Positions 2,523 to 61,397 of a DNA stretch of 64,000 bases are shown here, piece after piece. The notes beneath the pieces are model-generated. The model had not been told where the DNA came from. It ran no database searches and was given only the letters and a program-made list of their open reading frames with translations. Both the position numbers and the translations under genes were made by a program. Position 1 is the first letter of the stretch, and every line of letters begins with the position of its first letter. Source of the DNA: Verrucomicrobiota bacterium. Lineage in GTDB: Bacteria; Verrucomicrobiota; Kiritimatiellia; JAHIZV01. The DNA lies in NCBI GenBank assembly GCA_018814445.1, contig JAHIZV010000113.1:12679-76678 (forward strand), given 5' to 3'.

Positions 2523-2561
2523 TAAACCCCCAGTCAGCAGTTCATTCAGACCAGCCCACTG

Positions 2562-4781: not shown

Positions 4782-4785
4782 ATTA

Positions 4786-5973
4786 TCAGAATCCGATGAT
4801 GCGCTCCGGCACTATGATGACATCGCCCGCCTCGAGCGGAACATCGTTCTCAAATTCCCCTGTCTTAAGAATGCGGCCAACGTTGACAGCGAGACTTTGT
4901 TTGGAGCCGTCCGGCCCTTCGCGGATGAGCTTGACCTTGCCTGTGTTGGCAAAATCTGTGAATCCACCACTGTTCAAAATCGCCTTCGCCAACGTGATCC
5001 TCTGGTCGAGGGGCAGCGACATCGGACCCGGCTTCTTCACCTCGCCCAGGAAATACACCTGACCGCGGCTTGCCTGCTCGATCGATGGCACGAAAATAAT
5101 GTCTCCGGCCAGGACCGGCACATTCATAGTCATGTCAGCCGCACCGAAAAGTCGGGACAGATCAACCGGGATCGCAGTGTAATCTCCGGCTTCATTCGGG
5201 CGCAGAATCCGGACCGAATCCATTTTTGCGTAGCGGCTGACGCCGCCGGCTCTGGAGATGGCGCGAATCATATCAAGATCCTTGGAATACGGATGGAAGC
5301 CCGGATTGCCGGCTTCTCCAAGTACCAGGTACTCTGTAAGACCTTCGACATCGCCAAGCGAAGGAACCATGACGATATCACGCGGGCGCAGGAACTGATC
5401 GTTGCTGAAATCCAGCGTCTCCATCATCGACTGAACATCGACCGTGATGATCTGACGCTCCATGCTCCCGCCCGGCTTCCAGCGAATGATCCTGACCTCC
5501 GTGCCCGCGGCTCCACGGGCCAACCCTCCGTGCATCGCAATCAGTTCCATGAGAGTCAGAATCTGGTCGCCCCTGAAATCATGCGCTCCGGGGCTGTTCA
5601 CGGCGCCAAGAACAAGTATGCCGCCTTCGACAAACTCAGCCACTTCAACGGTAACGTTAGCTTCCTTGAAGTAGCTCTGCTTGAGCAGACTTTCTATCAG
5701 GTCAGCGGCCTCTTCCGTGGTGAGGTCAACGACTCGTATTCTCCCAACCAGGGGAAAGTCTATGGTCCCGTCGCCCGCCACCGCGTAGACCCGGTTCATG
5801 TCAGGTTGTTCTTTCACGGAAATCCGGACGCGGTCTCCCGCGATAACGCCTCGAACCGGCGTGGGGGTCTGGGCGGAAGCCGGAAGAATGGCTCCAAGGA
5901 AACCGATAAGAACTGCTGTCAGGACCAGGAAGGTTGAATATCCTGCAAGTCTATGTTGTTTGGCGGAATGCAT
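4786..5973 (-). CDS. wza: Wza-like polysaccharide export protein with Poly_export domain and three SLBB repeats
   Basis: Signal peptide; GDRVRISV...V..DGTIDFPLVGRIRV; repeated V.GEV..PG / AI..AGG SLBB motifs; adjacent to wzc. Confidence 0.88.
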   Translation of the reverse strand: MHSAKQHRLAGYSTFLVLTAVLIGFLGAILPASAQTPTPVRGVIAGDRVRISVKEQPDMNRVYAVAGDGTIDFPLVGRIRVVDLTTEEAADLIESLLKQSYFKEANVTVEVAEFVEGGILVLGAVNSPGAHDFRGDQILTLMELIAMHGGLARGAAGTEVRIIRWKPGGSMERQIITVDVQSMMETLDFSNDQFLRPRDIVMVPSLGDVEGLTEYLVLGEAGNPGFHPYSKDLDMIRAISRAGGVSRYAKMDSVRILRPNEAGDYTAIPVDLSRLFGAADMTMNVPVLAGDIIFVPSIEQASRGQVYFLGEVKKPGPMSLPLDQRITLAKAILNSGGFTDFANTGKVKLIREGPDGSKQSLAVNVGRILKTGEFENDVPLEAGDVIIVPERIIGF

Positions 5974-6010
5974 GCTGTGATCTCAAGAGGCCGAACGGCG
6001 ACTGTATGGA

Positions 6011-7342
6011 CTATAACTCATATACGAAAGTGAGAGTAACGCGGTGTTCGTCCAGAATCTCATCCTCATTGCTGTTGTCTTCATAGGTGTACTGATAGGA
6101 GATAATGCGGGAAATCTTCTCGGTAAGGCGCCGATCATGGGTCAGGAGAACGTCGTACGTCAGTATCTTTTCCTCAGGCAGATCCGGCGGATCATTGATC
6201 TCATACGTAATTCCGAGATTCAGCATCAGATCCCTGATAAACAACTCCTCCTTTGTCAGCCGGTACCCGTATGACGTGGTGTCCGTATCAACCGTTGAAC
6301 CGAACGTGTCGCGCGGCTCGCGCGAAGCAATGAGCGAATGGGAAAGCGACCTGGTTACCTGCTGGTCCAGTGTTGCGCCATAGACAAAAGTTCTATCATT
6401 AGCCTCTCTATTCTTCTCGTAGTCGTACTGCGCGAAGAACGCCAGCCTGTAGTTCGGCGAATCAAACAGCTCGATATCGTCTTCCGCCCGTATGCTGTGG
6501 GTGGCCTCCCAATTACCTTTCTCACCGTCGCTGTCCTCGCGCTCATAGCCCAGAATATAGACGATTCTGGGTCTTTCGATCAGAACCACGTCAAGAGACG
6601 CCAGGTGCGTATCGTCCCACCCATCGTACGCCGCGTCATCGTTGATCACGATCGTTCGATCATGCGTGTAGGCGTAGCCCAGGGCAAGGCGATCATTCAT
6701 GGTCCAACCAGCCTCGGCAGTCACGCTGTCTTCGTCACGATCGCCATCCTGAAATTGCGCGTCATCATGCCGTTCCTGGCTGTGCTCATACCTGGCGCCG
6801 GCTGAGAAGCGGTCAAACTCCCACCCCACATCAACACCGTAGCCGAACACATCGTTCACATCCCTCTTCTCGCGTCCTCCCGGAACAAACTGATCTTCGC
6901 GCGAGTCGAAACGCTTGTCGTAGGTCAGAAAGAGCCCGACATTGTATCGCCCCACTTCCGTCGCGTAATCAAGTTGCAGAGAACCAAATGGATCGGTCTC
7001 CTGATCCAGATCGTCGCGCTTGAAGTGGCGCTCAATCCGCAGATCAGATCCGACGGTCAGCTTCGTGCGCCGGCGGCTTTGAAGCTCACCGTCCAGACTC
7101 ACGCGGACAACGTAGTAGTAGTCTTTCTGCTCTCTCTCGGCTTCCGAATCCCGCAGACCCTCAACGTTCGTCGTGTAGATCAGGTCAAACGCGATGGTGG
7201 AATAGAAGTCAATGCCGCCCAGGCGCAGGAATTGAGCATGGGCGGATGACCCGCAGATTGCGGTGACGGCAAGAATTCCTGCGGTTAAGAGAGATGGGCC
7301 CGCAGGCCTCATCAACCTTCTTCTAATGCGGAAATCCAGCAA
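6011..7342 (-). CDS. Outer-membrane beta-barrel protein of the polysaccharide export locus
   Basis: Signal peptide, alternating Tyr/aromatic amphipathic strands, C-terminal LTFVYEL; directly upstream of wza. Confidence 0.7.
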   Translation of the reverse strand: MLDFRIRRRLMRPAGPSLLTAGILAVTAICGSSAHAQFLRLGGIDFYSTIAFDLIYTTNVEGLRDSEAEREQKDYYYVVRVSLDGELQSRRRTKLTVGSDLRIERHFKRDDLDQETDPFGSLQLDYATEVGRYNVGLFLTYDKRFDSREDQFVPGGREKRDVNDVFGYGVDVGWEFDRFSAGARYEHSQERHDDAQFQDGDRDEDSVTAEAGWTMNDRLALGYAYTHDRTIVINDDAAYDGWDDTHLASLDVVLIERPRIVYILGYEREDSDGEKGNWEATHSIRAEDDIELFDSPNYRLAFFAQYDYEKNREANDRTFVYGATLDQQVTRSLSHSLIASREPRDTFGSTVDTDTTSYGYRLTKEELFIRDLMLNLGITYEINDPPDLPEEKILTYDVLLTHDRRLTEKISRIISYQYTYEDNSNEDEILDEHRVTLTFVYEL

Positions 7343-17743: not shown

Positions 17744-18754
17744 ATGATTCGTGAAACCATAGCCAGACTGGTTGAACATCAGGACATCACGCGCGAAGAA
17801 GCACATGCGACCATGCGCGAGATCATGGGCGGCGAAGCCACGGAGGCCCAGATTGCGTCCTTCATCACGGCCCTCCGCATGCACGGCGAATCGCCCGCAG
17901 TGATAGCAGGCTGCGCGGCGGCCATGCGCGAGAATTTCACCGCCGTCGAACCTCATGCCGATGTAGTTGTCGATGTCGTCGGCACCGGCGGCGATTGCGC
18001 GCACACGTTCAACATATCAACGGCGTCCGCGATCGTAACGTCAGGCGCCGGCATCACCGTCGCCAAGCATGGGAACCGAAGCGTCTCCAGCAAGAGCGGT
18101 GCGGCGGATGTCCTCGGCGCGCTCGGTGTGAATATCACCTGCGCCCCTGAGATCATGTCTCAATGCCTGAAAGAAATCGGACTCGCGTTTCTCTTCGCGC
18201 CAGCTCTGCATCCCGCGATGAAATATGCCATCGGACCGCGAAGGGAAATCGGAATCCGCACTATCTTCAATATCCTCGGCCCCATCTCCAATCCCGCCAG
18301 TGCCCGACACGGGCTTCTCGGCGTATACTCCGCAGATCTCGTGCCCGTTATGGCGGAAGCCTGCGCGTCGCTCGGTGTGAAGCATCTGTTCGTGGTACAC
18401 GGAATGGACGGGCTTGATGAGATCACCCTGACGACCACAACGCAGGTCGCCGAGGTGAAAGACGGCAGGATCGAAAACTACCAGATCACGCCCGCCACCG
18501 CTGGACTGGAGACATGTACTCCCGACGAACTCGTGGGCGGAGAACCCGAAGACAACGCCACGATCATTCGCGCGATACTCGACGGTGAATCCGGCCCGAA
18601 ACGGGACGTCGTCCTCCTCAACTCCGCCGCGGCAATCGTAAGCGCCGGCAAGGCATCAGACCTGAAAGAAGGTGTCCAGGTTGCCGCCGAATCCATCGAC
18701 TCCGGAGCCGCCAAAGCTAAGCTGGAGAAACTCATCGCACTGACGAAAGTGTAG
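17744..18754 (+). CDS. trpD: Anthranilate phosphoribosyltransferase
   Basis: GTGGD..HTFNIST, KHGNRSVSSKSG.AD.L, HPAMK, RTIFNILGP. Confidence 0.96.
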   Translation: MIRETIARLVEHQDITREEAHATMREIMGGEATEAQIASFITALRMHGESPAVIAGCAAAMRENFTAVEPHADVVVDVVGTGGDCAHTFNISTASAIVTSGAGITVAKHGNRSVSSKSGAADVLGALGVNITCAPEIMSQCLKEIGLAFLFAPALHPAMKYAIGPRREIGIRTIFNILGPISNPASARHGLLGVYSADLVPVMAEACASLGVKHLFVVHGMDGLDEITLTTTTQVAEVKDGRIENYQITPATAGLETCTPDELVGGEPEDNATIIRAILDGESGPKRDVVLLNSAAAIVSAGKASDLKEGVQVAAESIDSGAAKAKLEKLIALTKV

Positions 18755-18789
18755 TCTGTGAAGCCACCTGTTCAAGACGGGCGCAGGAC

Positions 18790-18835
18790 CTCCAATGCCC
18801 GGAAGTGTCGAGGCGGCACTTTCCGAACCTTGGAA
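18790..18835. repeat. Doublet of degenerate TTCCAA-N3-TTGGAA palindromes around a GC-rich hairpin, between convergent genes (possible bidirectional terminator or REP-like element)
   Basis: CTCCAATGCCCGGAA (18790) and TTCCGAACCTTGGAA (18821); inner IR CGGAAGTGTC/GGCACTTTCCG. Confidence 0.45.
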
Positions 18836-18845
18836 CTGAAGCAGT

Positions 18846-21404
18846 CTACTCCGCTCTCAGCAACGAGTTGGTAACGCCACCGACGACTTTCGTCAGAGGA
18901 TTCGCTGGATCAAGAAGCCACTCGCCGTCTACGACGAACTTATAACCGTATTCGCCTGACACGACGGTAAGATCGCGCCTCCAAACACCATCCGGGCTTC
19001 GCTGTAGAGGATGATCTCCGGTATTCCAGCCGTTGAACTCTCCTGCGACGGAGACGTTCTCGGCAAGACTGTATCCCCTCAACTCGAAATGCGCCTGGTA
19101 AGGCCTGACAGCATCGTCCCAGTTACTCTTGAGATCTTTTGTCATTATCAGGAGAGAATTCAGAACCCCATTCTCAACCTTGGTGTGCTTGTTGACTGGG
19201 TCCACATGCCATTCTCCGTCGACAACGAATTTATAGATGTGATTTGTGTAGAAATCGAACCGATGTCGACGATGCCACAGACCTTCTTCGTTCTTCTGAA
19301 GTGGATCGACGCCTACGCTCCAGTGGTTGAAATAGCCTACGAAAGAAACATTTGTCGCTGAATCACTGCTGTCATCGTACCAGATATCTATTTCAATCCA
19401 GTCCTCGTCCTCAGGAGAACGCTCTGCTCCGTTGCTGACAGCAAGCCGCTCTACGTCACGCCATTCTTCGCCCATCCCCAGTTGAATTGTAAGCAACGCG
19501 CTGACGCCGTCTTTCGACCTGGCATTCACATTGGCCCCGTTCTCAATCAGCACTCGAGCACATTCTGGCGCACCCCAGGTTCGGGCGTGCATGAGCGGCG
19601 TGAATCCCATGGAATCCGAAAGCTCTGGATCGGCTTCGGCATCAAGCAGCACCTCAACACACTCAGGACATCGCCCCCGAACGGCAGAAATCATAGCAGT
19701 CCAGCGAGATTCCGCTCCAGTCATATTGGGATCAGCACCATGCTCGAGAAGAAGTTTTATGATTTCCACACGGGTACCATCCCTTCCGCGGTCAGCTGCA
19801 GTCATCAATGACGTCCAACCGTTCGTCCCCCCATAGTTGGGATCAGCGCCTGCTCCCAAAACGGTCTCCACCATGTCGGTGCGGTCGCTGAAGATGGCAG
19901 AGAACAGAGCTACGTTCAAAGCCCTGCTCGGGCCGCTGTCAGCCCTGGCCTCCAGCAGTCTCTTCAAGGCAGGCAGAGAGTTCCCCCATATGGCGTACGA
20001 AAACGCTCCGTGTCCATTTTCGTTGAGGTGATCAGCGTCAGCACCATACTTGATGAGTTGGTCTATGCAACTGACGAGGCCACGGCGCGCTGCCAGCATG
20101 AGTGGTGAAGTACCGCTCGGAAGCGTGGAATTCACATCGGCACCGCCTGATGCCAGCACCTCGATGACATTACAACGGCGCTTTGAGATCGCCGTGAGAA
20201 GAGCGCTCCACCCCGTTTGGTCGGTGGCATTCGGGTCGGCGCCCGCCTCAAGAATGACGCCAATAGCGTCTTCATGTCCATGGTCCGCCGCGCTTGTGAG
20301 TGGCATGTCACCGTCATCATCAATGGCAGACACGGAGAAGCCCCGTCCTATTAGCCATCGGATAGCATCAACTTGTCCTTGCATGGCCGCAAGGTGAAGC
20401 GCAGTTCTTTCGTCTGAGGTGCGCGCATGCATGTCTGCCCCGTACTCAGCGAAAAGGTTAAGCATGCGAAGATCTCCGGTTTCGGCGGCTGCGAGAAAGG
20501 GAGTCCAGCCTCTCTTGTCCGTTTTGTTGAGGAGCGCACCTTCTTCAAGCAATCTGGCGGCAATGACTGGAGCGGGATACCATGCTGTATAGTCAAGAGC
20601 TGTCCGCCCTTTCTCGTTGGCTATCCTGAAATCGGCGCCTCTATCCAGAAGAAGGGCCGCCACATCCGAGTGGCCTTCGATGATAGCTCGCATGAGAGGC
20701 GTGTATCCACTGGCATCATCCTCGTCGATTCCGCTGCCCTCAGTCCTGTCCAGAATTGCCGCAACCACACCTGTACTGCCTCCTTCTGCAGCGAAGTGTA
20801 GTACATAAGTACCAAATTGAGTGTCCGTCACGGGATTCGCCCCATGCTTCAAGAGCACCTCCACCACTTCGGGCTGCCCTTCTTCTGCAGCTATCATCAG
20901 AGGCGTCCTTTGGTCATGGCCATGTGCGTCTACATCCGCACCATATGAAAGCAGCAACCGAACGAAGTCGGGACGCCCGGCAGCAGCAATATGAAGCGGG
21001 GTGAATCCAAGTTGCGTGTCAGCATTTTCGATATCCGCTCCCAGCCCAATAAGCAACTCCCCGATGTCCGTTCTCCCGTACAGCGCTGCCATATGGAGGG
21101 CCGTGAAGCCTCTAACCCCTCGGTTGAGCGGCGCCCCGTGTGCCACCAACCGCTCGACTTCCTGCTCCATGCCGGCCGCAACGGCTCGCAGCAGACTCTC
21201 AAGAAGGGCTTCCCGATTGATAACGCCGGACGCGTCATTGAATTTCTTGATAACCTCGGACAACTCGGGGTCGGGTGGAGGGAGGTCAGATGGTGTATTG
21301 CCAACATCCGCACCGAGGCTCAGACAAAGAAAGGCGAGCGTTACCAGAGCGAGTCCAAAGATGTGCAGGGAAATGCTGTAGGGAAGTCGCATTCCCCTCT
21401 CCAT
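18846..21404 (-). CDS. Secreted ankyrin-repeat protein with two C-terminal CBM48/AMPK-beta-like glycogen-binding domains
   Basis: Signal peptide; about 15-16 ankyrin repeats (G.TPLH.AA..G..D.V..LL..GAD.N); two V...G.FN.W......GLW......YKFVVDGEW..DP.N modules. Confidence 0.88.
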   Translation of the reverse strand: MERGMRLPYSISLHIFGLALVTLAFLCLSLGADVGNTPSDLPPPDPELSEVIKKFNDASGVINREALLESLLRAVAAGMEQEVERLVAHGAPLNRGVRGFTALHMAALYGRTDIGELLIGLGADIENADTQLGFTPLHIAAAGRPDFVRLLLSYGADVDAHGHDQRTPLMIAAEEGQPEVVEVLLKHGANPVTDTQFGTYVLHFAAEGGSTGVVAAILDRTEGSGIDEDDASGYTPLMRAIIEGHSDVAALLLDRGADFRIANEKGRTALDYTAWYPAPVIAARLLEEGALLNKTDKRGWTPFLAAAETGDLRMLNLFAEYGADMHARTSDERTALHLAAMQGQVDAIRWLIGRGFSVSAIDDDGDMPLTSAADHGHEDAIGVILEAGADPNATDQTGWSALLTAISKRRCNVIEVLASGGADVNSTLPSGTSPLMLAARRGLVSCIDQLIKYGADADHLNENGHGAFSYAIWGNSLPALKRLLEARADSGPSRALNVALFSAIFSDRTDMVETVLGAGADPNYGGTNGWTSLMTAADRGRDGTRVEIIKLLLEHGADPNMTGAESRWTAMISAVRGRCPECVEVLLDAEADPELSDSMGFTPLMHARTWGAPECARVLIENGANVNARSKDGVSALLTIQLGMGEEWRDVERLAVSNGAERSPEDEDWIEIDIWYDDSSDSATNVSFVGYFNHWSVGVDPLQKNEEGLWHRRHRFDFYTNHIYKFVVDGEWHVDPVNKHTKVENGVLNSLLIMTKDLKSNWDDAVRPYQAHFELRGYSLAENVSVAGEFNGWNTGDHPLQRSPDGVWRRDLTVVSGEYGYKFVVDGEWLLDPANPLTKVVGGVTNSLLRAE

Positions 21405-22789
21405 CAGGACAACTCCGGATACTTCACACCCAACAGCTTCGAGATGGTTTTATTGAAAGCCTTCTGCTCTTCCTTTGCCATCTTCTCCGCCGCGCTGATT
21501 CGCTTGCCGAGAGCGTCGAAGTCGAGGCCGGCTGTTGCGCCGAGGTGCGTCTTCTTTGCGATCGCCTCGTAGGGATCCATGTTCTCGAGATCTTTCAGTG
21601 ATCCTTTGACCTTGTGATACGCATTCCTGAAGGACAGTCCGCCCGCAACGAACTCGATGGCCTTGTCGGTCGCGAAAACGGCGGGACTGAAGCCGGCGAG
21701 CAGAGCTTCTTTATTCACCTTCATGCTCGCGATGAGCGGCTTCATAATTCTCACGCAAGCAAGCGCCGTGGCCATGCCTTCGAGAAACGGCTCTTTGGCT
21801 TCCTGCAGATCCCGGTTGTAACCGGTGGGCGTCGCCTTGACGATCTCGCTTGTCGCGAACGCCTGCGCCATCACCCGGGAAGCCTTGGCCCGGATGAGTT
21901 CCAGCACATCCGGATTGTTCTTCTGCGGCATGATACTGCTTCCGGTTCCGAACTCCGCCGGAAGTGAGAAGTAGTTGAACTCCGGCATCGTGAAGAGCAT
22001 CAGATCCTGCGCGATCCGCGACAGGGACAGCATCAATTGCGACATAGCCGAAAGGATGATGGATTCCATCTTGCCCCGGGCCATGCCTGCGTAGATCACG
22101 TTATGACAGGGCCGGCTGAAACCGAGCGCATCTGAAACATACTGCCTGTCAATCGGCAGAGGAACCCCATAGCCCGCCGCGGAACCCAGCGGACATTGGT
22201 CGTTGATCTCGTAGGCGTTTACGAGCAAAGCGATATCATCAAGCAGTGCTTCAGCGCAGGCCGAAGCCCAGAGCCCGACAGAGCTCGGCATGGCCGGCTG
22301 CATGTGCGTCCGTCCCACCATCGGCTGAGCCACGTGCTTCACCGCAAATGACTGAAATACTCTAGCCAGCAAGGCCGTATCCTCGATCGCGGCGAGAAGC
22401 TGCTGCTTCCCGTAGAGCCGCAGATCTACGGCGACTTGATCGTTCCGGCTCCTGGCGGTGTGAACCCGTTTCCCGAGATCACCGAGGGCGGCGGTAAGCG
22501 TCCGCTCCACGGCAAGATGCACATCCTGATCTTCGATCCTGATCTTGAACTTGCCCAGCCGGTGGGTTTCGATGATATCCAGCAGCTTTGCGACCACTTC
22601 ATCGGCGTTCTTCCCGGTCAGAATCTTCTTCTTCAAAGGCATCCGGGAGAGCATCCGGACGTGTGCGGCAGTTCCTATGCAGTCCACCTCCACGAGCGCA
22701 GAGTCCAGTTCCACATCCTTCCCCGCCGTAAACGCGAGAACCGAGGCGTCAATATCACCCACCGTCGTCTTTTTGCTGGAAGCTTTCAT
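21404..22789 (-). CDS. argH: Argininosuccinate lyase
   Basis: HTARSRNDQVA, GRTHMQ.A.P, PLGSAAGYG, signature GSSIMPQKNNPD..EL, GYNRDLQE. Confidence 0.95.
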   Translation of the reverse strand: MKASSKKTTVGDIDASVLAFTAGKDVELDSALVEVDCIGTAAHVRMLSRMPLKKKILTGKNADEVVAKLLDIIETHRLGKFKIRIEDQDVHLAVERTLTAALGDLGKRVHTARSRNDQVAVDLRLYGKQQLLAAIEDTALLARVFQSFAVKHVAQPMVGRTHMQPAMPSSVGLWASACAEALLDDIALLVNAYEINDQCPLGSAAGYGVPLPIDRQYVSDALGFSRPCHNVIYAGMARGKMESIILSAMSQLMLSLSRIAQDLMLFTMPEFNYFSLPAEFGTGSSIMPQKNNPDVLELIRAKASRVMAQAFATSEIVKATPTGYNRDLQEAKEPFLEGMATALACVRIMKPLIASMKVNKEALLAGFSPAVFATDKAIEFVAGGLSFRNAYHKVKGSLKDLENMDPYEAIAKKTHLGATAGLDFDALGKRISAAEKMAKEEQKAFNKTISKLLGVKYPELS

Positions 22790-22810
22790 TTCAAGTCCTT
22801 TTGGCCAACG

Positions 22811-22838
22811 AGCGTATTCTCTTATGGGGAGGTGTCAA
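22811..22838 (-). promoter_or_regulatory. Putative sigma70 promoter for argH (TTGACA-16-TACGCT)
   Basis: Minus strand reads TTGACA cctccccataagagaa TACGCT, ending ~21 nt before the ATG. Confidence 0.45.
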
Positions 22839-22843
22839 GCAAT

Positions 22844-22871
22844 CGGATGCCGGATACCAGATGCCAGATGC
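22844..22871. repeat. Degenerate heptamer tandem repeat (CGGATGC CGGATAC CAGATGC CAGATGC)
   Basis: Four 7-nt units read directly in the intergenic region. Confidence 0.6.
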
Positions 22872-22984
22872 AGGGCCCCTGTCATCGCGAACTCGCCATT
22901 TGGACTTGCTCATGACCGCAGAAAGTGAAGCGATCCCGTGTTTGGAGTGAGTGGATTGCTTCGCCGTCCGCCTTCAAGATCAGG

Positions 22985-24292
22985 TCAAGGAAGATCAGTT
23001 GGCTTCTCCCCTCTGGATTCAGTCAAGCCGTCTCGATCGAACGTCTCCTCAATGTACTGGTCCAGATAGTCCTGTCTTTGCCGCACCTGGACATTCAGTT
23101 GATCGAGCAGAAGGTCTGCCTTCCGGAGCAGTTCCGACAGTTCCCGATCTGAAGGCGGATGGGCAAAGAGCCTGGCCATCCGATTTCGCGGGGGGCTCCA
23201 CAACAGCGCTTCAAAAAAGGACTGGTAAGCCTCCGCAACCTGCCTGACTTCTGCGGCCTGACCAATCACTGCACTCGCAAGCCTGGCGGAAAGAAATGTA
23301 GTCAGCGTTCTGCTCCATGGCTCGTTTCGCGCGCCGATCAGATCCCGGGGAACCATGGTCTGCGGAAGGGCCAATTGAGGTGACAGACCTACTGTCTGCG
23401 GGTCAATCGTCAGAACGTCCTGCAACTCGTTCAAGCCGAATGCCGGGTCAAGACTCCAGAGATTCCTCTTCTGTCTCAATGACACCACCCACAAGTCCCA
23501 CGCCTGCTCCAGTTCCCGGCCGTCGCTGATATCATCCATTCGTTCCGCCAGCATGTCTGCCGACACCGTCTCACCTTTTGCCAGAGCGTCTAACAGCCCG
23601 GACCGGACATCCGGCCAATCGGGTCGCGAAGAGAGCCAGTCAAAAAGCACGCCGCAAAAAGCCTTGTTCTTCCATCGTCCTGACGGAAGGAACTCAAGAA
23701 ACAGAAGGTCACGCACGCCCGGACAGCGGCCTTCTTCCCACTCCCGCAAAGCCACATACTGATTCCTCGCCCGAAGATCCGAAGTCGCATTCTGGGCCAG
23801 ACCGATGGAATACCAGTCGGGAGCGTTAATGTAGTCCTCTGAACCGGTGAGAAATGCGGCCTTCCGTGAAAGCAGTCTGCTGACCAGCAGATCGGTGACC
23901 TCTTCCAGAAGACTTTCCCGGTCGGCCTGCGCGAAGCTCGGAAGAATGATGCTTTGTTCGATTCGGCCGACCAGGAATCTGCCCGATGTCAGAATTCTTC
24001 CAGCCAGAGAAGGATCTTCAGGCCTGATGTCGAGATGCAGCGGATTTCCACGTTCTATGTGAAGTTCCCCGCCTGTGAGAAAGTCTACCTTCTCCGCCGT
24101 CTCCTCGATCCATAGCGCAGCATTGAGATTCTCGACCTTGTTTCCGCCGGTGACGAGGAAGCGCTGGGAGGAACTCAATACGCTGGTCGAACCAATCCGG
24201 CCCGGCTGCATAATCTGCGCCGACGCAGCCAGCGACAGAGCAAGAAACACAGGAATATTCAGAACACGCATGCCCATTGTTCTCAGCAACAT
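22985..24292 (-). CDS. Secreted hypothetical protein, possibly an inactive peptidase-MA/gluzincin-like fold
   Basis: Signal peptide (LALSLAASA); LLEEVTDLL...APDWYSIGLAQ resembles the HExxH...PxWxxEGLA layout without the metal ligands. Confidence 0.65.
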   Translation of the reverse strand: MLLRTMGMRVLNIPVFLALSLAASAQIMQPGRIGSTSVLSSSQRFLVTGGNKVENLNAALWIEETAEKVDFLTGGELHIERGNPLHLDIRPEDPSLAGRILTSGRFLVGRIEQSIILPSFAQADRESLLEEVTDLLVSRLLSRKAAFLTGSEDYINAPDWYSIGLAQNATSDLRARNQYVALREWEEGRCPGVRDLLFLEFLPSGRWKNKAFCGVLFDWLSSRPDWPDVRSGLLDALAKGETVSADMLAERMDDISDGRELEQAWDLWVVSLRQKRNLWSLDPAFGLNELQDVLTIDPQTVGLSPQLALPQTMVPRDLIGARNEPWSRTLTTFLSARLASAVIGQAAEVRQVAEAYQSFFEALLWSPPRNRMARLFAHPPSDRELSELLRKADLLLDQLNVQVRQRQDYLDQYIEETFDRDGLTESRGEKPTDLP

Positions 24293-24379
24293 TCAACTCT
24301 CATTGGGACCCGCCGGAACCACCCGCGGACGGTCCGGCGGCCCGTCCCGGCCTATGGATTCAAAATTGAATGTTGAGCG

Positions 24380-24826
24380 CTATTTTCCCCGACTTTCCAT
24401 GATAATTGTCACGGGCCCATCGTTCTCGATGTCAACGACCATGCTCGCACGGAAGATTCCGGTCTTAACGATATGTCCCATTTCGCGAAGCCGCTCTACA
24501 AACTGGCCGAAGAGAGCCTTGGCTTCTTCCGGCGGGGCGGATTCAATGTAGCTTGGGCGGTTGCCTTTCCGGCAATCTCCATAGAGGGTGAACTGGCTGA
24601 CGACGAGGAACGATCCCTCGACCGCATCGATCGACGCGTTCAGCTTCCCTTCTTCATCGTCGTACACACGAAGCTGGGAGACTTTCCGCGCAAGATAATC
24701 GATGTCCGCCTGCGTGTCGCCTTTGGCCACTCCGAGGAGAACGACTGCCCCGGGACCGATTTCGGCAACGGACTCGTCATTGACGAGTACACCGGCCCGA
24801 CGGACCCGCTGCAGAACCAGCTTCAT
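24380..24826 (-). CDS. dtd: D-aminoacyl-tRNA deacylase
   Basis: MKLVLQRV, SQFTLYGDCRKGNRPS, G.F.A.M.V...NDGPVT. Confidence 0.96.
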   Translation of the reverse strand: MKLVLQRVRRAGVLVNDESVAEIGPGAVVLLGVAKGDTQADIDYLARKVSQLRVYDDEEGKLNASIDAVEGSFLVVSQFTLYGDCRKGNRPSYIESAPPEEAKALFGQFVERLREMGHIVKTGIFRASMVVDIENDGPVTIIMESRGK

Positions 24827-24829
24827 GAT

Positions 24830-26548
24830 CTATTCCACGGCGTGGGAAATGCGCAGCGTATCGAGCCGGTTCAGGGCCGCCGCGATTTCGTAACGGCGGG
24901 GGCGGGCGAGGTCACCGCGGAGATCGCGCGACAGACATTCAAGACCCTCCGTACTCAGATCGCGGTCCACGAGATCCAGGATCTCACGGATCGGACGCCC
25001 CTCATCCATGTAGCGAAGTTTGGCGTAGTAGAGAATGACACCGATCGTCTCCGTCTGATGAATGTCAGCCAACTGGAAGATGCCCTGCAGATCGACGAGT
25101 GATTTGCCGAATTCCAGAACGTCCGTTGCCAGGGCATTGATGAAGTAGTCATTGGTGCCGACACTTGGATCGAGACTGCTGGGCACGACCCAGCGGTTCT
25201 TCTCGACGAGCGAGGAGATGTCCTCAATCTGCCCGGTATTTTCAGACGTCGATACACCCAACTCTTTCGCCTGTGGGGTGACGTCACGCACCTGGAGCCC
25301 GTCAAGGCAAAGCACAGTGTCCGCTATAGGCACAAATTCCGCCACACAGCTTGCCCCTCCGACGATGATCGAGACGCCCAGCTCATCCACCAGTTGGCGC
25401 GCCCTCGAAGCAAGGCTCGGCGTTTCACTTCTGCCCTCGAACAGGATTTTCGCCAACCTGGAGTCCCCGGCGAGAAATGCCGACGAAGAATCGGCCTCGT
25501 CGAAAATCAGGACCCGGGCGCCGACCTCGAGCGCTTCGACCGTTCCCGCAGCCTGTGATACACAGGCATTGGCTTCCTCAGTCGTAAGCTGGGTCATATC
25601 GACTTCTCCCAATTCGGAACCGGTGAAGGCGGTTACGTCCACGCGCTGAATGGATCGTCCGGGCTCGGAGGCCACGTAGACCGCATCCGGAACGGTCACA
25701 ACGAATTCGCGCCCGTCGCCGGGCACGTGATTGTAGATTCCCGAGGCCACAGCCCGGAGAAGTTCAGTCCGTCCGGAAAGGTTGTCGCCAAGGACGACGG
25801 TAATGCCGCTCGGTATGCCAAGTCCTTTGATCGCTCCCGTATTGGGCACGTCCAGTTCGACGAGAAGATCTTCGGGAACGGAGAGTACGGCCGTCGATTC
25901 GTAGTCCGGGAGATCCGTGGCTCGTTCGCGGACGACCATTGATCCGTCGGCGGCAAACGCAACGAACCCGCGCGTAGGCAGCATCTGGCGAATCTGATCC
26001 GCATCCTCCATCAGGTCGACAAAATGATCGACTTCCTTCTCGTCAAGATTGCAGTAAATCAGGGCGGCTGTAACGACGGCCGGAAGATGATCGAAGAACA
26101 CATCCTGCGCGCTTTCCCCCGTAATGAACCCGTCTCTTGCGGGGAGGTCCACATAGATACGCGCCTCGACAAACTCCTCCGTTACAAGCAGCGATGTCCG
26201 GGGAAGAATCTTCTGCCCCGGCACCGCGACAGCAAGACGACGACGCGATACGCCCTCACGGTCGTACTGCGCTACTCGCTCGATGGCTTCTCCGAGCTTG
26301 CGGGTCAGCAGGTCCTCAAGGGCAGTGCGTCTGACCGGCGTGTTGAAAAGATGCGCGGGAAAACCGGCTATGATCTGGGGTACGCGGACGACAAAGAGAC
26401 AAGGATCGCTCTCGGCATTCTCGGGGGATTGCGTGATCTTGAGAACGTAGCGGGAGAAGTCGAAATCACCAATCAGTGACGAGTATTCGGAGAAATCCTT
26501 CCCGTCAATGCTGTTTAGAATGCTGAAAAATTCTTTTTTATCTCTCAT
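24830..26548 (-). CDS. ABC-class ATPase-like protein (ABC_ATPase / MRB1590-like family) with degenerate nucleotide-binding motifs
   Basis: IDGK..Y, GIYNHVPGDGRE.VVT, SQAA..VEALE.GA..L.FDE, G.LA.PRRYEIAAALNRL family motifs; Walker A reads GDNLSGRT. Confidence 0.8.
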   Translation of the reverse strand: MRDKKEFFSILNSIDGKDFSEYSSLIGDFDFSRYVLKITQSPENAESDPCLFVVRVPQIIAGFPAHLFNTPVRRTALEDLLTRKLGEAIERVAQYDREGVSRRRLAVAVPGQKILPRTSLLVTEEFVEARIYVDLPARDGFITGESAQDVFFDHLPAVVTAALIYCNLDEKEVDHFVDLMEDADQIRQMLPTRGFVAFAADGSMVVRERATDLPDYESTAVLSVPEDLLVELDVPNTGAIKGLGIPSGITVVLGDNLSGRTELLRAVASGIYNHVPGDGREFVVTVPDAVYVASEPGRSIQRVDVTAFTGSELGEVDMTQLTTEEANACVSQAAGTVEALEVGARVLIFDEADSSSAFLAGDSRLAKILFEGRSETPSLASRARQLVDELGVSIIVGGASCVAEFVPIADTVLCLDGLQVRDVTPQAKELGVSTSENTGQIEDISSLVEKNRWVVPSSLDPSVGTNDYFINALATDVLEFGKSLVDLQGIFQLADIHQTETIGVILYYAKLRYMDEGRPIREILDLVDRDLSTEGLECLSRDLRGDLARPRRYEIAAALNRLDTLRISHAVE

Positions 26549-26599
26549 TGGATTCTGGTCCTTATTCGTTAAACCGGATTTACAATACTGTCATTTTGC

Positions 26600-27316
26600 C
26601 TATCTGCTCTCGATAATCAATGTGATTCGCCCATCGTTCAGTTCGAAACGGTCTGCCGCATCGAGTACCGGCTTCTCCACTTCATCCCTGGCACGGAAGA
26701 TCGTGGCGATGCGGGCAATGATTCTGCCGCGGAGGAATGCGGGCAGAGGAAGGTGACCCATGCGAACGCCGACCGCGTCTATCGCAAAGGATCCAACGCC
26801 CCCCACCGGAATGCCCGAGATCTCGTAGGATAGAGTCACCATCTTCCGCTTCGCGCTCACAAGCACAACGACTGCTTCCGGCTTGATCTGAATATTGATC
26901 TCCTGGAGGTCGAGGCTGAGCGCCGGTGCCTGCTGGCCGGCCGGCCGTTCATCGATCCTGGTGATGATCTCCGCGAGATAGCTGTTGATTTCGACTTCAC
27001 TGGCAGTTTCTGTAACCGCGCGGCCGCTCTTTATTTCAGAAGCGACGTAACGCAGCTTTTCATACAGAGCGCGGGCGTCCTCGCGCGTCCCCAGGCGGCC
27101 CGCCGGTTCCACGGGCCAGAGGAGCAGACCGAGCATCGCGATAAGACCGAGAAAGACGAGCAGACGTACGAATCGGAATAGGCGACGTCCTGAACCGCTC
27201 CCCGCCCCCGCAGGCTCAACGTGGGAAAGATCCAGTTTCGCGCCACACTTAGTACAGAAGATGCGGGCGAGGTCATTCTTCTGCCCGCAGATCTTACAGA
27301 CCGGCCCCAGACTCAT
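26600..27316 (-). CDS. Zinc-ribbon + single TM + periplasmic domain hypothetical protein
   Basis: CxxC-x10-CxxC (CKICGQKN...FCTKCG), TM at ~aa48-70, C-terminal beta-rich region ending MGHLPLP. Confidence 0.7.
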   Translation of the reverse strand: MSLGPVCKICGQKNDLARIFCTKCGAKLDLSHVEPAGAGSGSGRRLFRFVRLLVFLGLIAMLGLLLWPVEPAGRLGTREDARALYEKLRYVASEIKSGRAVTETASEVEINSYLAEIITRIDERPAGQQAPALSLDLQEINIQIKPEAVVVLVSAKRKMVTLSYEISGIPVGGVGSFAIDAVGVRMGHLPLPAFLRGRIIARIATIFRARDEVEKPVLDAADRFELNDGRITLIIESR

Positions 27317-27603
27317 TTCGTCTCCTTGGCTTTTGACGAATCGGCAGGGCTGTCCTTTTTCTTCTCGGGAGCTGCCGTGGTCGACGAGCTCTTGTCAGCA
27401 GTCGCCGCCTTCTTATAGCTGTCGCTCCGGTAATCCGTGGTATAGAAGCCAGAGCCTTTGAAAAGCAGACCCGCGCCCGTTCCGATCAGTCTCTTAACCG
27501 GACCGCCGCATTCCCGACACTCCTTCAGAGGTTCGTCGGACATGGCCTGGAACTCCTCGAAGACTACACCGCACTTCTTACATTTGTACTCGTAAGTCGG
27601 CAT
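27313..27603 (-). CDS. FmdB-family zinc-ribbon protein
   Basis: MPTYEYKCKKCG..FE..Q.M...PL..C..CGG, FKGSGFY.TDY; true start 27603 (ORF-track extension to 27819 rejected). Confidence 0.9.
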   Translation of the reverse strand: MPTYEYKCKKCGVVFEEFQAMSDEPLKECRECGGPVKRLIGTGAGLLFKGSGFYTTDYRSDSYKKAATADKSSSTTAAPEKKKDSPADSSKAKETK

Positions 27604-27898
27604 CCCTTGCTCTCCCGAAAAAGGAGGGGGAATATAGGGGCAGCATCGCCAAATGTCAATTGGCTCCAACGATTCTGCGCTACGCCGAATACCTGCTAGT
27701 GTTTCATAGTTACAAGATTCACTCCTCGGGTGCCTGAACTGGAACGGGAATCCTCCCCGACGGTAATGCTGGTTTTTCCTCGCAAATCGCGGGTGGTTTT
27801 GCATTATGCGTTCCCACATGCAATGTTGTGTGGGCCACGCGGATGAGTTGCTTCATTATCCTGTCGTGACGAGATCCTAGCGCTTGAGAGGACTTTAG

Positions 27899-29023
27899 AT
27901 GGACAAAACGGATTTCTTTGCGTACCTGAAAAAGGCTGAGGATCGCGTGCTCGGCTACATCCGCCAAAGCGACGTTGCACGCTTCTTCCATCCACCCATT
28001 ATTGAGCAAGCCGTATGGGCATACCCTGAAAGGTCCGCCAAACGCCTGCGCCCGGCTGTACTATTGATGTCCGCTGGATGCATGGGCGACACCGCCAAGG
28101 AGGATCAAGCGGTTCCCGCAGCGGCGGGCGTCGAGCTTTTCCATACATGGACCCTGGTCCACGATGACATCATTGATAACGACACAATGCGCCGCTTCGA
28201 ACCCACTGCCCATGTGCAGGCAACCGACACGGCCTTGCGTACACTACCCCTATCGCGAGAACTTGCGACAGAGTTTGGCCGAGACGTGGCAATGCTCGCC
28301 GGCGATATGCAGCACGGCTGGTCGATTACAGCATTCTCAGACTGTGCTCTCCAGTCGGATACAGATCCTACGCTTCTCCTTCAAATCATCCGATGTCTTC
28401 AGTCCTACGTTTTGGGCGAGTTGATCTCCGGCGAGACCCTTGATGTACAGTATGGTATGACTCATGCTGTGGAAGCCTTGGATCTGTCCGAGGACGAAAT
28501 AGAACACATGCTTTGGCTCAAGACAGGTGTACTCTACGAGTTCGCGGGGTGGGCCGGTGCTCTCATCGGAGCAGGTCAGTATGTCCCCATTGATACAAAG
28601 AAGCCATCTTCCCCGACGGAGGAAGCTATCCTTGCGATCCGCTCCTTCACGAGCAATTGCGGCACCGCATTCCAACTCCAAGATGACATCCTTGGAATCG
28701 TGGGTGTTGAAGAGGATCTTGGTAAACCCGTTGGTTCTGACATTCGAGAAGGTAAGCAAACGGTCATCGTACATGAGGCGTTGAAGAACGCTGAGCCTGC
28801 CCAGAAAGAGAAAATTTTGTCTGTATTAGGCAACAAGGCGGCGACTCCTGAGGACATCTCGCAGGTCTCCAATCTTTTCCGCGAACATGGTGTTGAACGC
28901 GCAAAGGAACGCGCTCGCGGTTATATCGAAAAAGCACGGCAACACTTGCCCCATATTCCCGACGGACACCACAAGGAATTGCTTCGTTTCTGGGCTGACT
29001 TCATGATCAACCGCGAGTTTTGA
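27899..29023 (+). CDS. Short-chain polyprenyl diphosphate synthase (type I GGPPS/IdsA-like)
   Basis: KRLRP, FARM HDDIID, LKTG, SARM FQLQDD, GKPVGSDIREGK. Confidence 0.9.
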   Translation: MDKTDFFAYLKKAEDRVLGYIRQSDVARFFHPPIIEQAVWAYPERSAKRLRPAVLLMSAGCMGDTAKEDQAVPAAAGVELFHTWTLVHDDIIDNDTMRRFEPTAHVQATDTALRTLPLSRELATEFGRDVAMLAGDMQHGWSITAFSDCALQSDTDPTLLLQIIRCLQSYVLGELISGETLDVQYGMTHAVEALDLSEDEIEHMLWLKTGVLYEFAGWAGALIGAGQYVPIDTKKPSSPTEEAILAIRSFTSNCGTAFQLQDDILGIVGVEEDLGKPVGSDIREGKQTVIVHEALKNAEPAQKEKILSVLGNKAATPEDISQVSNLFREHGVERAKERARGYIEKARQHLPHIPDGHHKELLRFWADFMINREF

Positions 29024-29057
29024 GAGAGCCCATCGAACTGTCCTTTGAAAGGAACAC

Positions 29058-30089
29058 ATGAACGTAAATAAACACCATGTCACGGTCTTCATAAGCTCGG
29101 CAATGCGAGAGCTTGAGGCCGAGCGGGAAATCGCGCAAGAGGCCCTAGCTCATGCAAAGATGGATCCTGTCGCTTATGAGCTATTTCCCTCAATCAGCCA
29201 ATCGCCCATGGAAGCCTGCATCGACAAGGTCAAGAAGTGCGACATCTTCGTGCTGATCTTGTGGAAATCACTCCGCCCGGCGGTGGAAGAAGAACTTGCC
29301 GCGGCCATCAAGAATAACAAACCAATTCTCCTTTTTGTCAAGACGTTGCTTGACGGTGAGTCTCGCGCATCCAATACCTCTGAGTTCCTTACCCAAGTTC
29401 AACAATCGAACGAGAAGCAAAGTGCTTTCTCTGTTTCTTATCGTCCTTTCAGAGGACTTGCGGAATTGCGTCAGATCCTGTGTGACAGTATTGCGGAAGA
29501 AACCGCCAAACTATACCGAATGCCCGATTACACCCTCGCAAAGCATGAGTTGTATGATCTAGGCACAGAGATTATCGCACACGCTCGAAAACGTTTATTC
29601 ATCTTCCAGAGAACCCCCTCACTATTGCTCGGGCCTAGGCCCTACTTAGACGAAAGCAAATCACGTAAATACGAACGTGACTTCTATTCCTCTCTCAAAG
29701 AGTGGATTCAGACGAGGCATGAGAATCCCGATTGTGAATTCTTCTGCCTATTCTCGATGAGCGCCACGCAGACTGAACTGCAGAAATACGGCTTGCTCGA
29801 TCATGCCGACTATCTTGCGCGATTGCGTGTTACGATTGACGAGTATGACCATATCGAAGAAAGCTCAGGTGGTCGCTTCATGGTAAGAATGACAGATGAT
29901 CCTGTTTCTGGCCCCCACATCGTGGGAGATGACCGTTTTGCCGTATGGCTCTTTGGTGGCGATGACGCCGTCGCCGTGGGCGTCAGGAACGAGAAACTGT
30001 GTGATGCTGTGACCCGCATGCTGCGAACTCGCTGCCGTCTTTTGACAGCCAGAGCCATATGCGAAGAAGGTTCCACCTCGGTCAAATAG
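29058..30089 (+). CDS. DUF4062 (TIR/nucleoside-deoxyribosyltransferase-like) domain protein with uncharacterised C-terminal domain
   Basis: VFISS..REL..ER, CD.FVLIL, EEL..A...KPILLF.K N-terminal motifs; RBS GAAAGGA. Confidence 0.75.
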   Translation: MNVNKHHVTVFISSAMRELEAEREIAQEALAHAKMDPVAYELFPSISQSPMEACIDKVKKCDIFVLILWKSLRPAVEEELAAAIKNNKPILLFVKTLLDGESRASNTSEFLTQVQQSNEKQSAFSVSYRPFRGLAELRQILCDSIAEETAKLYRMPDYTLAKHELYDLGTEIIAHARKRLFIFQRTPSLLLGPRPYLDESKSRKYERDFYSSLKEWIQTRHENPDCEFFCLFSMSATQTELQKYGLLDHADYLARLRVTIDEYDHIEESSGGRFMVRMTDDPVSGPHIVGDDRFAVWLFGGDDAVAVGVRNEKLCDAVTRMLRTRCRLLTARAICEEGSTSVK

Positions 30090-33398: not shown

Positions 33399-33794
33399 CT
33401 AGGCAATGCGAATGATGCCGGGCACTGCATCGAAGCCCCGATCAAACGTCATGATCTCGCCCGCTCCATGGCGCTGCATGATGGCGACATGCAGTGCGTC
33501 CCGGGAAGATAACTTGCGCGAGCCGAGAAGGATGTCTTTCGCTTTCTGAACATCTCGTGGCTCAACCGGGAAGACTTCATCAACGACCCCGAGAAGAGCA
33601 TCGAACGCCGGCTGTATTGCATCGAGACGGTCAATCGCCCGATAGCGACGGAGTATCTCTTGAAGTACCTCAGCATTAGTCACAAGACGTTTGCGCTCCG
33701 AAATAGCCCTCTCAAGAAGCTGTTGTGCATCCACTTTGTGAGGGTGAGAGGCGCCAACCAGGTACATGGGAATGTTTGAGTCGATGAGAATCAT
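33399..33794 (-). CDS. vapC: VapC PIN-domain toxin
   Basis: [30 protein letters not shown]. Confidence 0.92.
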
Positions 33795-34048
33795 GAATCA
33801 AGGCCATCCTGTTGACCTCGCGCTATATCCCCGAGCATCTGATCGATGTCGCCGGCAGGATAGGCGTTGCTTGCTGCTTCCCGCACGACCTGGATCTTCT
33901 TTGCCGAATCATACATCGGCTGTTCGCGCAGGGCCTCTCTGAGAGCCTGGCGCACCCATGCCGCAACCGTCAAACGGTGAGCTTTGGCCACACGGCGCAC
34001 ACGAGCCATCTCAGCGTCTTCCAGAATAACCTGCAATCTTTTGCTCAT
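33791..34048 (-). CDS. vapB: VapB/CopG-type ribbon-helix-helix antitoxin
   Basis: [12 protein letters not shown]...V...A....TV..WVR.AL; ATGA overlap with vapC. Confidence 0.85.
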
Positions 34049-34054
34049 ATATAT

Positions 34055-34070
34055 ACTCATAGGCATGAGT
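34055..34070. promoter_or_regulatory. Palindromic operator candidate ACTCAT-N4-ATGAGT upstream of vapB
   Basis: Perfect 6-bp arms, 6 nt upstream of the start codon; RHH antitoxins autoregulate through such sites. Confidence 0.5.
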
Positions 34071-38778: not shown

Positions 38779-39156
38779 TTACCGCAGCGACAGCGGGACA
38801 TGCTTCGCGAGCGACCGGAAGTGCTTGTCGTACGTGAACAACTCCAACCCGTTCTGAATCGCGTGCTGCGATATGATCAGATCGGGAATGCCCACCTTGT
38901 TGATCCCGTTGCGAAGACAGGTAATCTGCATCTGAACGATGTCCTCCCAGTCTATTGAGACCGGATGCCGGGCAATGTCCTTCAGAAGGCCTATCAACTT
39001 CCGCTCTCGCCGGACATGAAGCGCGGGAATCAATTCCGCCAGAATGAGATCGTTGACCTCCACCAGGTTCTCATCGATCAGAAACTCCAGTTCTTCCTGA
39101 TCTCCAGAACCACGGAAATAGTCGATCCATACCGGACTGTCGACCAACACGCTCAT
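38779..39156 (-). CDS. vapC: VapC PIN-domain toxin
   Basis: VLVDSPVWIDYFR, ILAEL, GIPDLII...A, T.DKHF. Confidence 0.92.
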   Translation of the reverse strand: MSVLVDSPVWIDYFRGSGDQEELEFLIDENLVEVNDLILAELIPALHVRRERKLIGLLKDIARHPVSIDWEDIVQMQITCLRNGINKVGIPDLIISQHAIQNGLELFTYDKHFRSLAKHVPLSLR

Positions 39157-51734: not shown

Positions 51735-51802
51735 CCGGGGAACGTCTATTTCCCGTAGTGAGTACGCGGCCTGTGGATATAGACCACACGCTTCTTCGTG
51801 TC

Positions 51803-55437: not shown

Positions 55438-55647
55438 AGCCCGCGTGACCAACCTCAGCGTCGGCAAAGACCTATAGTGAACGTAAATCGATGTCGAGTG
55501 AATTAATTCCGCCCGCTTTTTCCCGCTTGGCGACCGTGTCTGCGGCGCGACAGATTCCTTGCCTTACTCGAAACCAAGGGGAACCACAGATGGACACGGG
55601 AACCTTTTCTCTTTGGTTCACGGAAAGAGCGCATTACAATCTGTTGC

Positions 55648-58506: not shown

Positions 58507-58520
58507 TTCCGTGATCGAAT

Positions 58521-61106: not shown

Positions 61107-61218
61107 ATTGCACCGGAGCGTGTCCAGTCAGCAGGCGCATATACCTGATCGGGGCGCGTCTGCGATTAGGTGCGAACCCCGGCGAAAACACGACATGAGC
61201 CCATATTTTTATCCCTTT

Positions 61219-61275
61219 CTTAATCGTAATCCTGCTCGCAATCATAATCGATTAGGATCAGGAGGGAATAGGAGA
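61219..61275. repeat. Hexamer-periodic imperfect inverted repeat (CTTAAT CGTAAT ... ATTAGG ATCAGG) in a divergent intergenic region
   Basis: Read directly; the first 13 nt CTTAATCGTAATC recur exactly at 44993. Confidence 0.45.
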
Positions 61276-61397
61276 TCAGTGAAGTGTCTGCACTATCGAC
61301 CGCTCCGCGATAGCAACTGTTCCGCCCTGCACCCCGTGCAGGCGGAGAAGCAAAACTCGTCTGGACCAATTATCCGTTAGTCGCTACTGTCTGCGGC

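Follow-up and report, generated by a model that had tools for sequence, protein, structure and literature searches.

What purpose would be served in a bacterium by a protein that joins a predicted export signal to a long array of ankyrin repeats (ANK) and two glycogen-binding modules, with no catalytic domain, and how did its gene come to lie directly behind argH? These questions are raised by a gene on the minus strand (18846..21404) of a 64,000 nt stretch of contig JAHIZV010000113.1, positions 12,679 to 76,678, from a member of the Verrucomicrobiota (Kiritimatiellia; assembly GCA_018814445.1). That whole stretch is referred to here as the window. The reading we favour, with roughly even confidence, is that the product is a Sec-exported, non-catalytic adaptor, in which a pair of CBM48 modules would bind alpha-glucan and the ankyrin array would hold one or more exported partner proteins.

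The open reading frame (ORF) of 852 aa plus stop has exactly the limits given in a first-pass annotation, which had been made from the sequence alone. Its parts are as follows.

18846..21404, minus strand: whole ORF, comprising signal, ankyrin array and two CBM48 modules (ORF reading, Pfam; protein P0001 is identical)
21309..21404, minus strand: signal-peptide-like segment, residues 1-32 (MERGMR, hydrophobic L7-L30, LGA|D; helix 9-29 in the AlphaFold2 (AF2) model)
21210..21308, minus strand: acidic, proline-rich linker, residues 33-65 (DVGNTPSDLPPPDPELSE...; read from the sequence)
19413..21209, minus strand: about 18 ankyrin repeats, residues 66-664 (Pfam, self-profile, AF2 helix pairs)
19137..19391, minus strand: CBM48 module 1, residues 672-756, with W695, K725, W732 and N749 (Pfam, PDB search, alignment, AF2)
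19098..19136, minus strand: linker between the CBM48 modules, residues 757-769 (AF2 model, residue map)
18849..19097, minus strand: CBM48 module 2, residues 770-852, with W793, K822, W829 and N846 (Pfam, PDB search, alignment, AF2, Foldseek)

The two C-terminal modules are recognised by Pfam well above the gathering cut-offs, each model matching two stretches: AMPK1_CBM (PF16561) at 67.1 bits (E=1.6e-18; cut-off 26.8), and CBM_48 (PF02922) at 49.3 bits (cut-off 22.4). In a sequence search of the PDB, the best matches of either module were AMPK beta2/beta1 CBMs (module 2, E=7e-9; module 1, E=4e-4). When AF2 modelled the complete chain from its single sequence, confidence was low (pLDDT 55, and below 30 in the CBM part); the C-terminal part was then refolded with a 62-sequence alignment, giving two beta-sandwiches at a pLDDT of 89.3. 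Single modules superimpose by Foldseek on AMPK beta CBMs (1Z0M/4YEF/2F15) with a root-mean-square deviation of 1.4-1.8 Å and a target TM of up to 0.88, followed by SEX4, GlgB and amylase N-domains.

The residues that contact the ligand are also kept. When 492 modules of 172 family proteins were aligned to a profile, the positions of AMPK Trp100, Lys126, Trp133 and Asn150 were occupied by W in 477, K in 464, W in 470 and N in 406 modules, and both modules of the window protein carry all four. Trp100 and Trp133 are the key glucan-binding tryptophans of AMPK-beta, and mutation of their equivalents abolishes starch binding by the plant protein PTST (PMC4339375). We infer from this that alpha-glucan (glycogen, starch) is the probable ligand of both modules.

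No enzyme is attached to them. The Pfam scan of the protein found only ANK and CBM48-type families and no Alpha-amylase domain, and in the NCBIfam scan no model passed its curated cut-off; those for GlgB align to residues 781-830 alone, with 26-37 bits against NCBIfam cut-offs of 577-1270. Since signal, linker, ankyrins and the CBM48 pair fill the 852 aa, there is no space for a catalytic domain, and the protein is, judged by its domain content, non-catalytic. Assignment as GlgB or another GH13 branching or debranching enzyme was rejected, as the GH13 catalytic (beta/alpha)8 domain is missing. A C-terminal sorting domain was likewise rejected, because the protein ends straight after module 2, six residues past the conserved Asn846. 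In these respects, the two modules and the missing catalytic domain, the first-pass annotation was right.

It had counted about 15 ankyrin repeats. The array itself is confirmed, with five ankyrin families matched by Pfam (Ank_2 at E=2.9e-94, Ank at E=7e-88), but the count was too low: a self-built repeat profile finds 17-18 repeats in register across residues 66-664, and paired helices run through this region in the single-sequence AF2 model.

Export was judged by heuristics (charge of the n-region, Kyte-Doolittle 19-mer, the -3/-1 rule and charge of the flank). The n-region, MERGMR, is net positive and precedes a hydrophobic core, L7-L30, which ends LSLGA|DV. The highest Kyte-Doolittle 19-mer mean (2.2) lies at this N-terminus, the sole strongly hydrophobic segment of the protein, and the single-sequence model places one helix there, at residues 9-29. 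Candidate sites such as LGA|D satisfy the -3/-1 rule, by a heuristic reading and with a long h-region of about 24 aa. The flank that follows is acidic, with 0 K/R and 5 D/E in 25 residues, and the charges around the core are +2/-1 before it and 0/-5 after. A second in-frame ATG (Met5) is also preceded by a purine-rich stretch, and its use would leave the N-terminal signal unchanged.

The same features recur in relatives. In all nine complete members of the ANK-CBM48 family described below, a positive n-region precedes a hydrophobic core, small residues occupy -3/-1 and the flank is acidic; members other than the window protein have short signals of the classic cleavable kind (for example SSRA|Q, VFA|DE, AFA|AA, AVA|DE). 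In the wider CBM48 clade, 134 of the 148 members with complete N-termini (about 91%) carry a signal-like segment. Because of this recurrence the protein is very probably exported, as first proposed, and a cleaved signal is favoured over an uncleaved anchor. It does not appear to be a lipoprotein, since its only cysteine (C27, in the context A-F-L-C) fails the lipobox [LVI][ASTVI][GAS]C, nor a Tat substrate, since MERGMRL lacks a twin-arginine motif.

If the adaptor reading is correct, signal peptidase would cut near LGA|D, at residue 32, and release a mature protein that is soluble in the periplasm or secreted further. The two C-terminal modules would bind alpha-1,4/1,6-glucan bivalently (glycogen, starch or maltodextrin-type chains) through the Trp-Lys-Trp-Asn platform, the same as that of the AMPK-beta glycogen-binding domain. 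The solenoid of about 18 repeats, on its flexible acidic/proline linker, would bind one or more exported proteins, and these partners would thereby be tethered to alpha-glucan outside the cytoplasm. Export with cleavage, and the recruitment of partners by the array, are what we infer from the features above.

Known systems resemble the protein in part. AMPK-beta (1Z0M, 4YEF, 2F15) shares the CBM fold, about 30% identity, the W/K/W/N residues and the placement of a CBM in a non-catalytic scaffold polypeptide. It differs in being cytosolic and eukaryotic, with a single CBM and a C-terminal domain that scaffolds a kinase, whereas the window protein is bacterial and predicted to be exported, has two CBMs and an ankyrin scaffold, and does not keep the Leu146 position. 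The SusE and SusF proteins of Bacteroidetes starch loci are non-catalytic, exported, multivalent starch binders that act with GH13 enzymes; unlike the window protein, which has neither a lipobox nor the context of a polysaccharide utilisation locus (PUL), they are lipoproteins whose genes lie within PULs, and they lack ankyrins and have other CBM-like folds. That ankyrin arrays can work in the periplasm follows from Bd3460 of Bdellovibrio bacteriovorus, which has a signal peptide and ankyrin repeats and acts there by binding exported enzymes (PMC4686830). It is otherwise unlike, being a 23 kDa protein of six repeats without a CBM that inhibits DD-endopeptidases and whose gene adjoins that of its target (PMC4686830).

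The plant proteins PTST and FLO6 are non-catalytic and combine a protein-interaction domain with a C-terminal CBM48; they bring a partner (GBSS, isoamylase) to alpha-glucan, and binding needs two conserved tryptophans (PMC4339375). They have a coiled coil, a single CBM48, a plastid-stromal location and no homology to the window protein outside the CBM. Membership of PTST/FLO6 was rejected in view of the ankyrin array in place of the coiled coil, the two CBMs and the bacterial signal, and the resemblance is functional only. By analogy, the adaptor most likely works like PTST/FLO6 or AMPK-beta without belonging to either family.

The closest relatives of the CBM part are stand-alone tandem CBM48 proteins of Verrucomicrobiota and Bacteroidota, often mis-named GlgB, which align with the C-terminal 190 aa across both modules at 30-42% identity. 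Predicted signal peptides and the W-K-W-N motif are common to them and the window protein, but they have no ankyrin array and carry 2-4 (occasionally more) modules. A query with the C-terminal 197 aa returned about 300 proteins, mostly of 200-330 aa with 2-3 CBM48 modules and mostly from Verrucomicrobiota, which are annotated as 'glycogen-binding domain-containing protein' or, mistakenly, as 'branching enzyme'. A lipobox-like motif is present in 25 of the 148 clade members with complete N-termini.

Some of these relatives lie in loci that bear on the ligand, and lend weight to the alpha-glucan link made in the first-pass annotation. Two loci of Verrucomicrobiae (L035:5928-12233 and L037:5957-13176) encode a LacI regulator, an exported protein with three CBM48 modules and GH13/GH65C-like hydrolases, among them one large hydrolase with a signal and a neopullulanase-type GH13 without one (cytoplasmic). 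They are apparent alpha-glucan utilisation loci, going by their gene content. A GH13 gene lies downstream of the CBM48 match in 10 of the 80 metagenome loci, eight times within about 500 bp and twice at about 1.7-2 kb, and in none of the 32 controls. CBM48 proteins of the type in L035 and L037 are often mis-named '1,4-alpha-glucan branching enzyme' in the source annotation.

The full architecture is far less frequent. A search with the complete protein was dominated by generic ankyrins and returned only one protein with the same layout, P0015 (847 aa, 31% identity, 94% coverage). The C-terminal query and a junction profile (the last ankyrins plus the CBMs) were used instead, and 1.84 billion representative proteins were scanned exhaustively. 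Members found in this way are P0128 and P0511 (765 aa), P0448 and P0509 (775), P0455 (777), P0485 (774), P0492 (790), P0396 (960 aa, with three CBMs) and P0241, which is part of a frameshift-split gene; a metagenome scan added one more (L043). The family thus comprises about ten clusters in two size classes, of about 850-960 and 750-790 aa, with a layout of signal, about 14-18 ankyrin repeats and 2-3 CBM48 modules. Literature searches turned up nothing on either this architecture or the exported stand-alone CBM48 clade. The ANK-CBM48 architecture is rare and uncharacterised, in agreement with the first-pass annotation, which a common and characterised architecture would have refuted.

The source name is known for two members, and both are 'ankyrin repeat domain-containing protein [Kiritimatiellia bacterium]'; from such assignments the family may be Kiritimatiellia-specific. 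Reads for the window sequence were traced to a biofilm metagenome, and fragments of it to a groundwater metagenome; no RNA run contained it, and the carriers of the family as a whole are from biofilm, groundwater and wastewater metagenomes. The CBM modules of the fusions are mostly closest to the modules at the same position in other fusions, which fits one ancestral fusion. The split gene that contains P0241 (L034:557-2369, from a wastewater metagenome) has a frameshift near 1263-1285 that leaves two overlapping ORFs, and represents either an assembly error or a pseudogene.

Several observations weigh against the adaptor reading. Among 83 CBM48 loci, 50 carry instead an exported retropepsin-like protein with two Asp_protease_2 domains; its gene is directly upstream of the CBM48 gene, often with overlapping stop and start, and the pairing is almost confined to CBM48 proteins of four modules and about 480 aa. 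With most sampled relatives paired with a protease, the clade is not uniformly tied to alpha-glucan catabolism: on sequence grounds it is exported and multivalent, and a demonstrable tie to that pathway exists for only some of its members. The AMPK Leu146 position is variable across the family modules, and some CBM48-annotated domains have roles that do not involve alpha-glucan. No alpha-glucan enzyme is encoded within about 15 kb of the gene in the window, where it has no PUL context, and a comparison of seven ANK-fusion contexts showed no conserved neighbour. The hydrophobic core of the window protein, at about 24 residues, is long and would fit an uncleaved anchor as well.

Four alternatives have to be set beside the adaptor reading. 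The protease-paired subgroup and the missing glycoside hydrolase neighbours raise the first of them, that the modules bind another ligand, such as a matrix or capsular polysaccharide or a protein, and serve attachment to a biofilm matrix or the targeting of a partner. It would suit the largest stand-alone subgroup, whose partner is the protease, the ankyrin fusions without nearby alpha-glucan genes, and a sequence that comes from a biofilm metagenome and has an exopolysaccharide export cluster in its window. However, the W-K-W-N platform is kept in both modules and across the family, the nearest structures are all alpha-glucan binders and a subset of relatives sits in GH13/LacI loci, so this explanation is unlikely. 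The long core bears on the fate of the N-terminus. As an uncleaved signal anchor it would make a type II inner-membrane protein whose periplasmic ANK-CBM48 part holds imported alpha-glucan, and perhaps enzymes; the single predicted helix with the Pro-rich stalk behind it and a charge distribution giving an N-in/C-out topology are consistent with this. The short, classic cleavable signals of other family members, and the -3/-1-compatible LGA|D of the window protein itself, argue for cleavage and make a retained anchor rather improbable.

The first-pass annotation had also suggested a symbiont-type protein directed at host alpha-glucan. An effector aimed at the glycogen or starch of a host, prey or alga, and at host proteins, would be in keeping with the long ankyrin arrays typical of host-associated bacteria, with best full-length matches to eukaryotic ankyrins (26-33% identity) and with a weak similarity to Legionella Ank effector models. 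The best of the NCBIfam T4SS_Ank models (Dot/Icm-type effectors), AnkY, reaches only 164 bits against a cut-off of 600, with the others also far below, and such scores reflect generic ankyrin similarity. The metagenomic carriers, the two members named Kiritimatiellia, the kinship of the CBM part with exported bacterial CBM48 proteins and a Sec-type signal, by which proteins are not delivered into host cells, all run counter to the suggestion and leave it unsupported and very improbable. The last alternative leaves the N-terminus without an export function and has the protein organise cytoplasmic glycogen granules in the manner of AMPK-beta, PTST or Stbd1. Bacterial glycogen is indeed cytoplasmic, and in Stbd1-type proteins a starch-binding module is joined to a hydrophobic anchor at the N-terminus; but the charge bias predicts a C-out orientation, and the cleavable-looking signals of the complete family members and of the wider clade, lipoproteins included, leave this reading scarcely credible.

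The gene follows argH so closely that its ATG shares one base with the argH stop.

21404..22789, minus strand: argH (argininosuccinate lyase, TIGR00838); its stop codon TGA has one base in common with the ATG of the ANK-CBM48 gene
21413..21416, minus strand: GGAG Shine-Dalgarno-like motif, 8 nt 5′ of the ATG and within the 3′ end of argH (read from the sequence)

The TGATG overlap reported in the first-pass annotation is real, and the upstream gene is identified as argH by TIGR00838 (307.5 bits against a cut-off of 279.5). Its product has 66% identity to that of a metagenome-assembled genome and 65% to that of Pontiella sulfatireligans. The junction is covered, with no conflicting joints, by contigs from two sequencing runs on one sample, and an assembly chimera was rejected on the agreement between them. 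A scan for promoters and terminators (18600-24500) gave fewer sites than shuffled sequence, with none at the junction or after the gene, and is uninformative. From the overlap, and with no intervening promoter or terminator match, it is suggested that the gene may belong to the argH operon.

All genes of the surrounding string are on the minus strand, in the order Zn_ribbon_8, a 238 aa protein, ABC_ATPase (PF09818), dtd, an exported 435-aa unknown, argH and the ANK-CBM48 gene, beyond which lies a convergent trpD. The block of ABC_ATPase, dtd, the 435-aa unknown (in some cases) and argH is kept in Pontiellaceae and Kiritimatiellales, and the gene after argH varies (prs-rplY-pth in Pontiella). 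An ANK or CBM gene downstream of argH was found at none of 32 related argH loci, and the linkage is unique to the window genome. The homologue on the P0015 contig (L001) lies between kdtA and a string of Zn_ribbon_8, a 233 aa protein and ABC_ATPase, that is, at the opposite end of the same neighbourhood. Other members are found between aconitase and uvrB, before aroC-rsmD-coaD, beside a TMEM260-like protein, or among toxin-antitoxin genes. The ANK-CBM48 gene has a GC content at third codon positions (GC3) of 0.570, against 0.729 for argH and a window mean that is two standard deviations (SD) higher (0.680, SD 0.054); its overall GC and codon-usage distance are ordinary.

The first-pass annotation saw in this arrangement an insertion captured into a housekeeping transcript. 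The absence of the gene from all of the related argH loci and its low GC3 agree with that view, but the family looks native to the lineage, and relocation within it is favoured. With the named members all from Kiritimatiellia and the L001 copy in the same Zn_ribbon-ABC_ATPase neighbourhood, it looks like a lineage-native gene that moved within a loosely conserved region and landed behind argH, not a foreign insertion.

Other features of the neighbourhood may be recorded. The string of Zn_ribbon_8, an unknown of about 235 aa and ABC_ATPase (PF09818/PF20446/MRB1590_C) is common to the window (24830-27819, minus strand) and L001:3665-6179. The 435-aa protein (22985-24292, minus strand) begins with a signal and matches nothing in Pfam or NCBIfam; in several genomes of Kiritimatiellales and Lentisphaerota (L002, L005, L014, L016, L019), a homologue with 23-31% identity immediately precedes argH. 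A polyprenyl synthetase and a DUF4062 gene (27899-30089, plus strand) have the lowest GC of the window (0.50-0.54; GC3 0.555-0.579), and their GC3 dip resembles that of the ANK-CBM48 gene.

Further away, the exopolysaccharide export cluster (1071-7312, minus strand) comprises a Bac_transf priming transferase, a GNVR/AAA_31 chain-length kinase, a Poly_export/SLBB (Wza-like) protein and an outer-membrane protein (OMP) beta-barrel. A likely VapBC-type pair (33399-34066, minus strand) consists of a PIN-domain toxin (33399-33794) and an overlapping small upstream gene (33791-34066), and a second PIN-like ORF lies at 38779-39156 (minus strand). Six large predicted membrane proteins (500-860 aa) are encoded at 50220-63389; five lack a Pfam match, and in the sixth the N-terminus matches PMT_2 (ArnT/PMT-like glycosyltransferase). 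A TMEM260_N-type protein, broadly of the same class as these membrane proteins, comes after the ANK-CBM48 homologue in L040, possibly by coincidence. The unit of a retropepsin-like gene and a four-module CBM48 gene is found at L045:6545-8972, L046:1332-3784, L047:386-2789 and L112:5521-8201 and at some 46 other loci of the set L043-L122; both products are exported, the retropepsin-like one having about 320-430 aa, and we know of no characterisation of the unit.

In the handling of glycogen and starch by cells, a central part is played by non-catalytic CBM scaffolds, among them AMPK-beta, PTST and SusE/F, and to our knowledge none that is bacterial, exported and based on ankyrins has been described. 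The exported tandem-CBM48 clade, routinely mis-annotated as 'branching enzyme' and with a conserved retropepsin-like pairing, deserves curation. A bolder and rather doubtful extension is that the protein is an ankyrin-based, cohesin-free analogue of an amylosome or cellulosome scaffoldin, whose array would dock several exported enzymes or receptors while the CBM48 pair holds alpha-glucan, in a periplasmic, 'selfish' uptake of glycogen or starch by Kiritimatiellia. If the adaptor reading is true, the family would form a second functional class of periplasmic ankyrin proteins, and would give a handle on how Kiritimatiellia, which are poorly studied polysaccharide degraders, organise the capture of alpha-glucan outside the cytoplasm.

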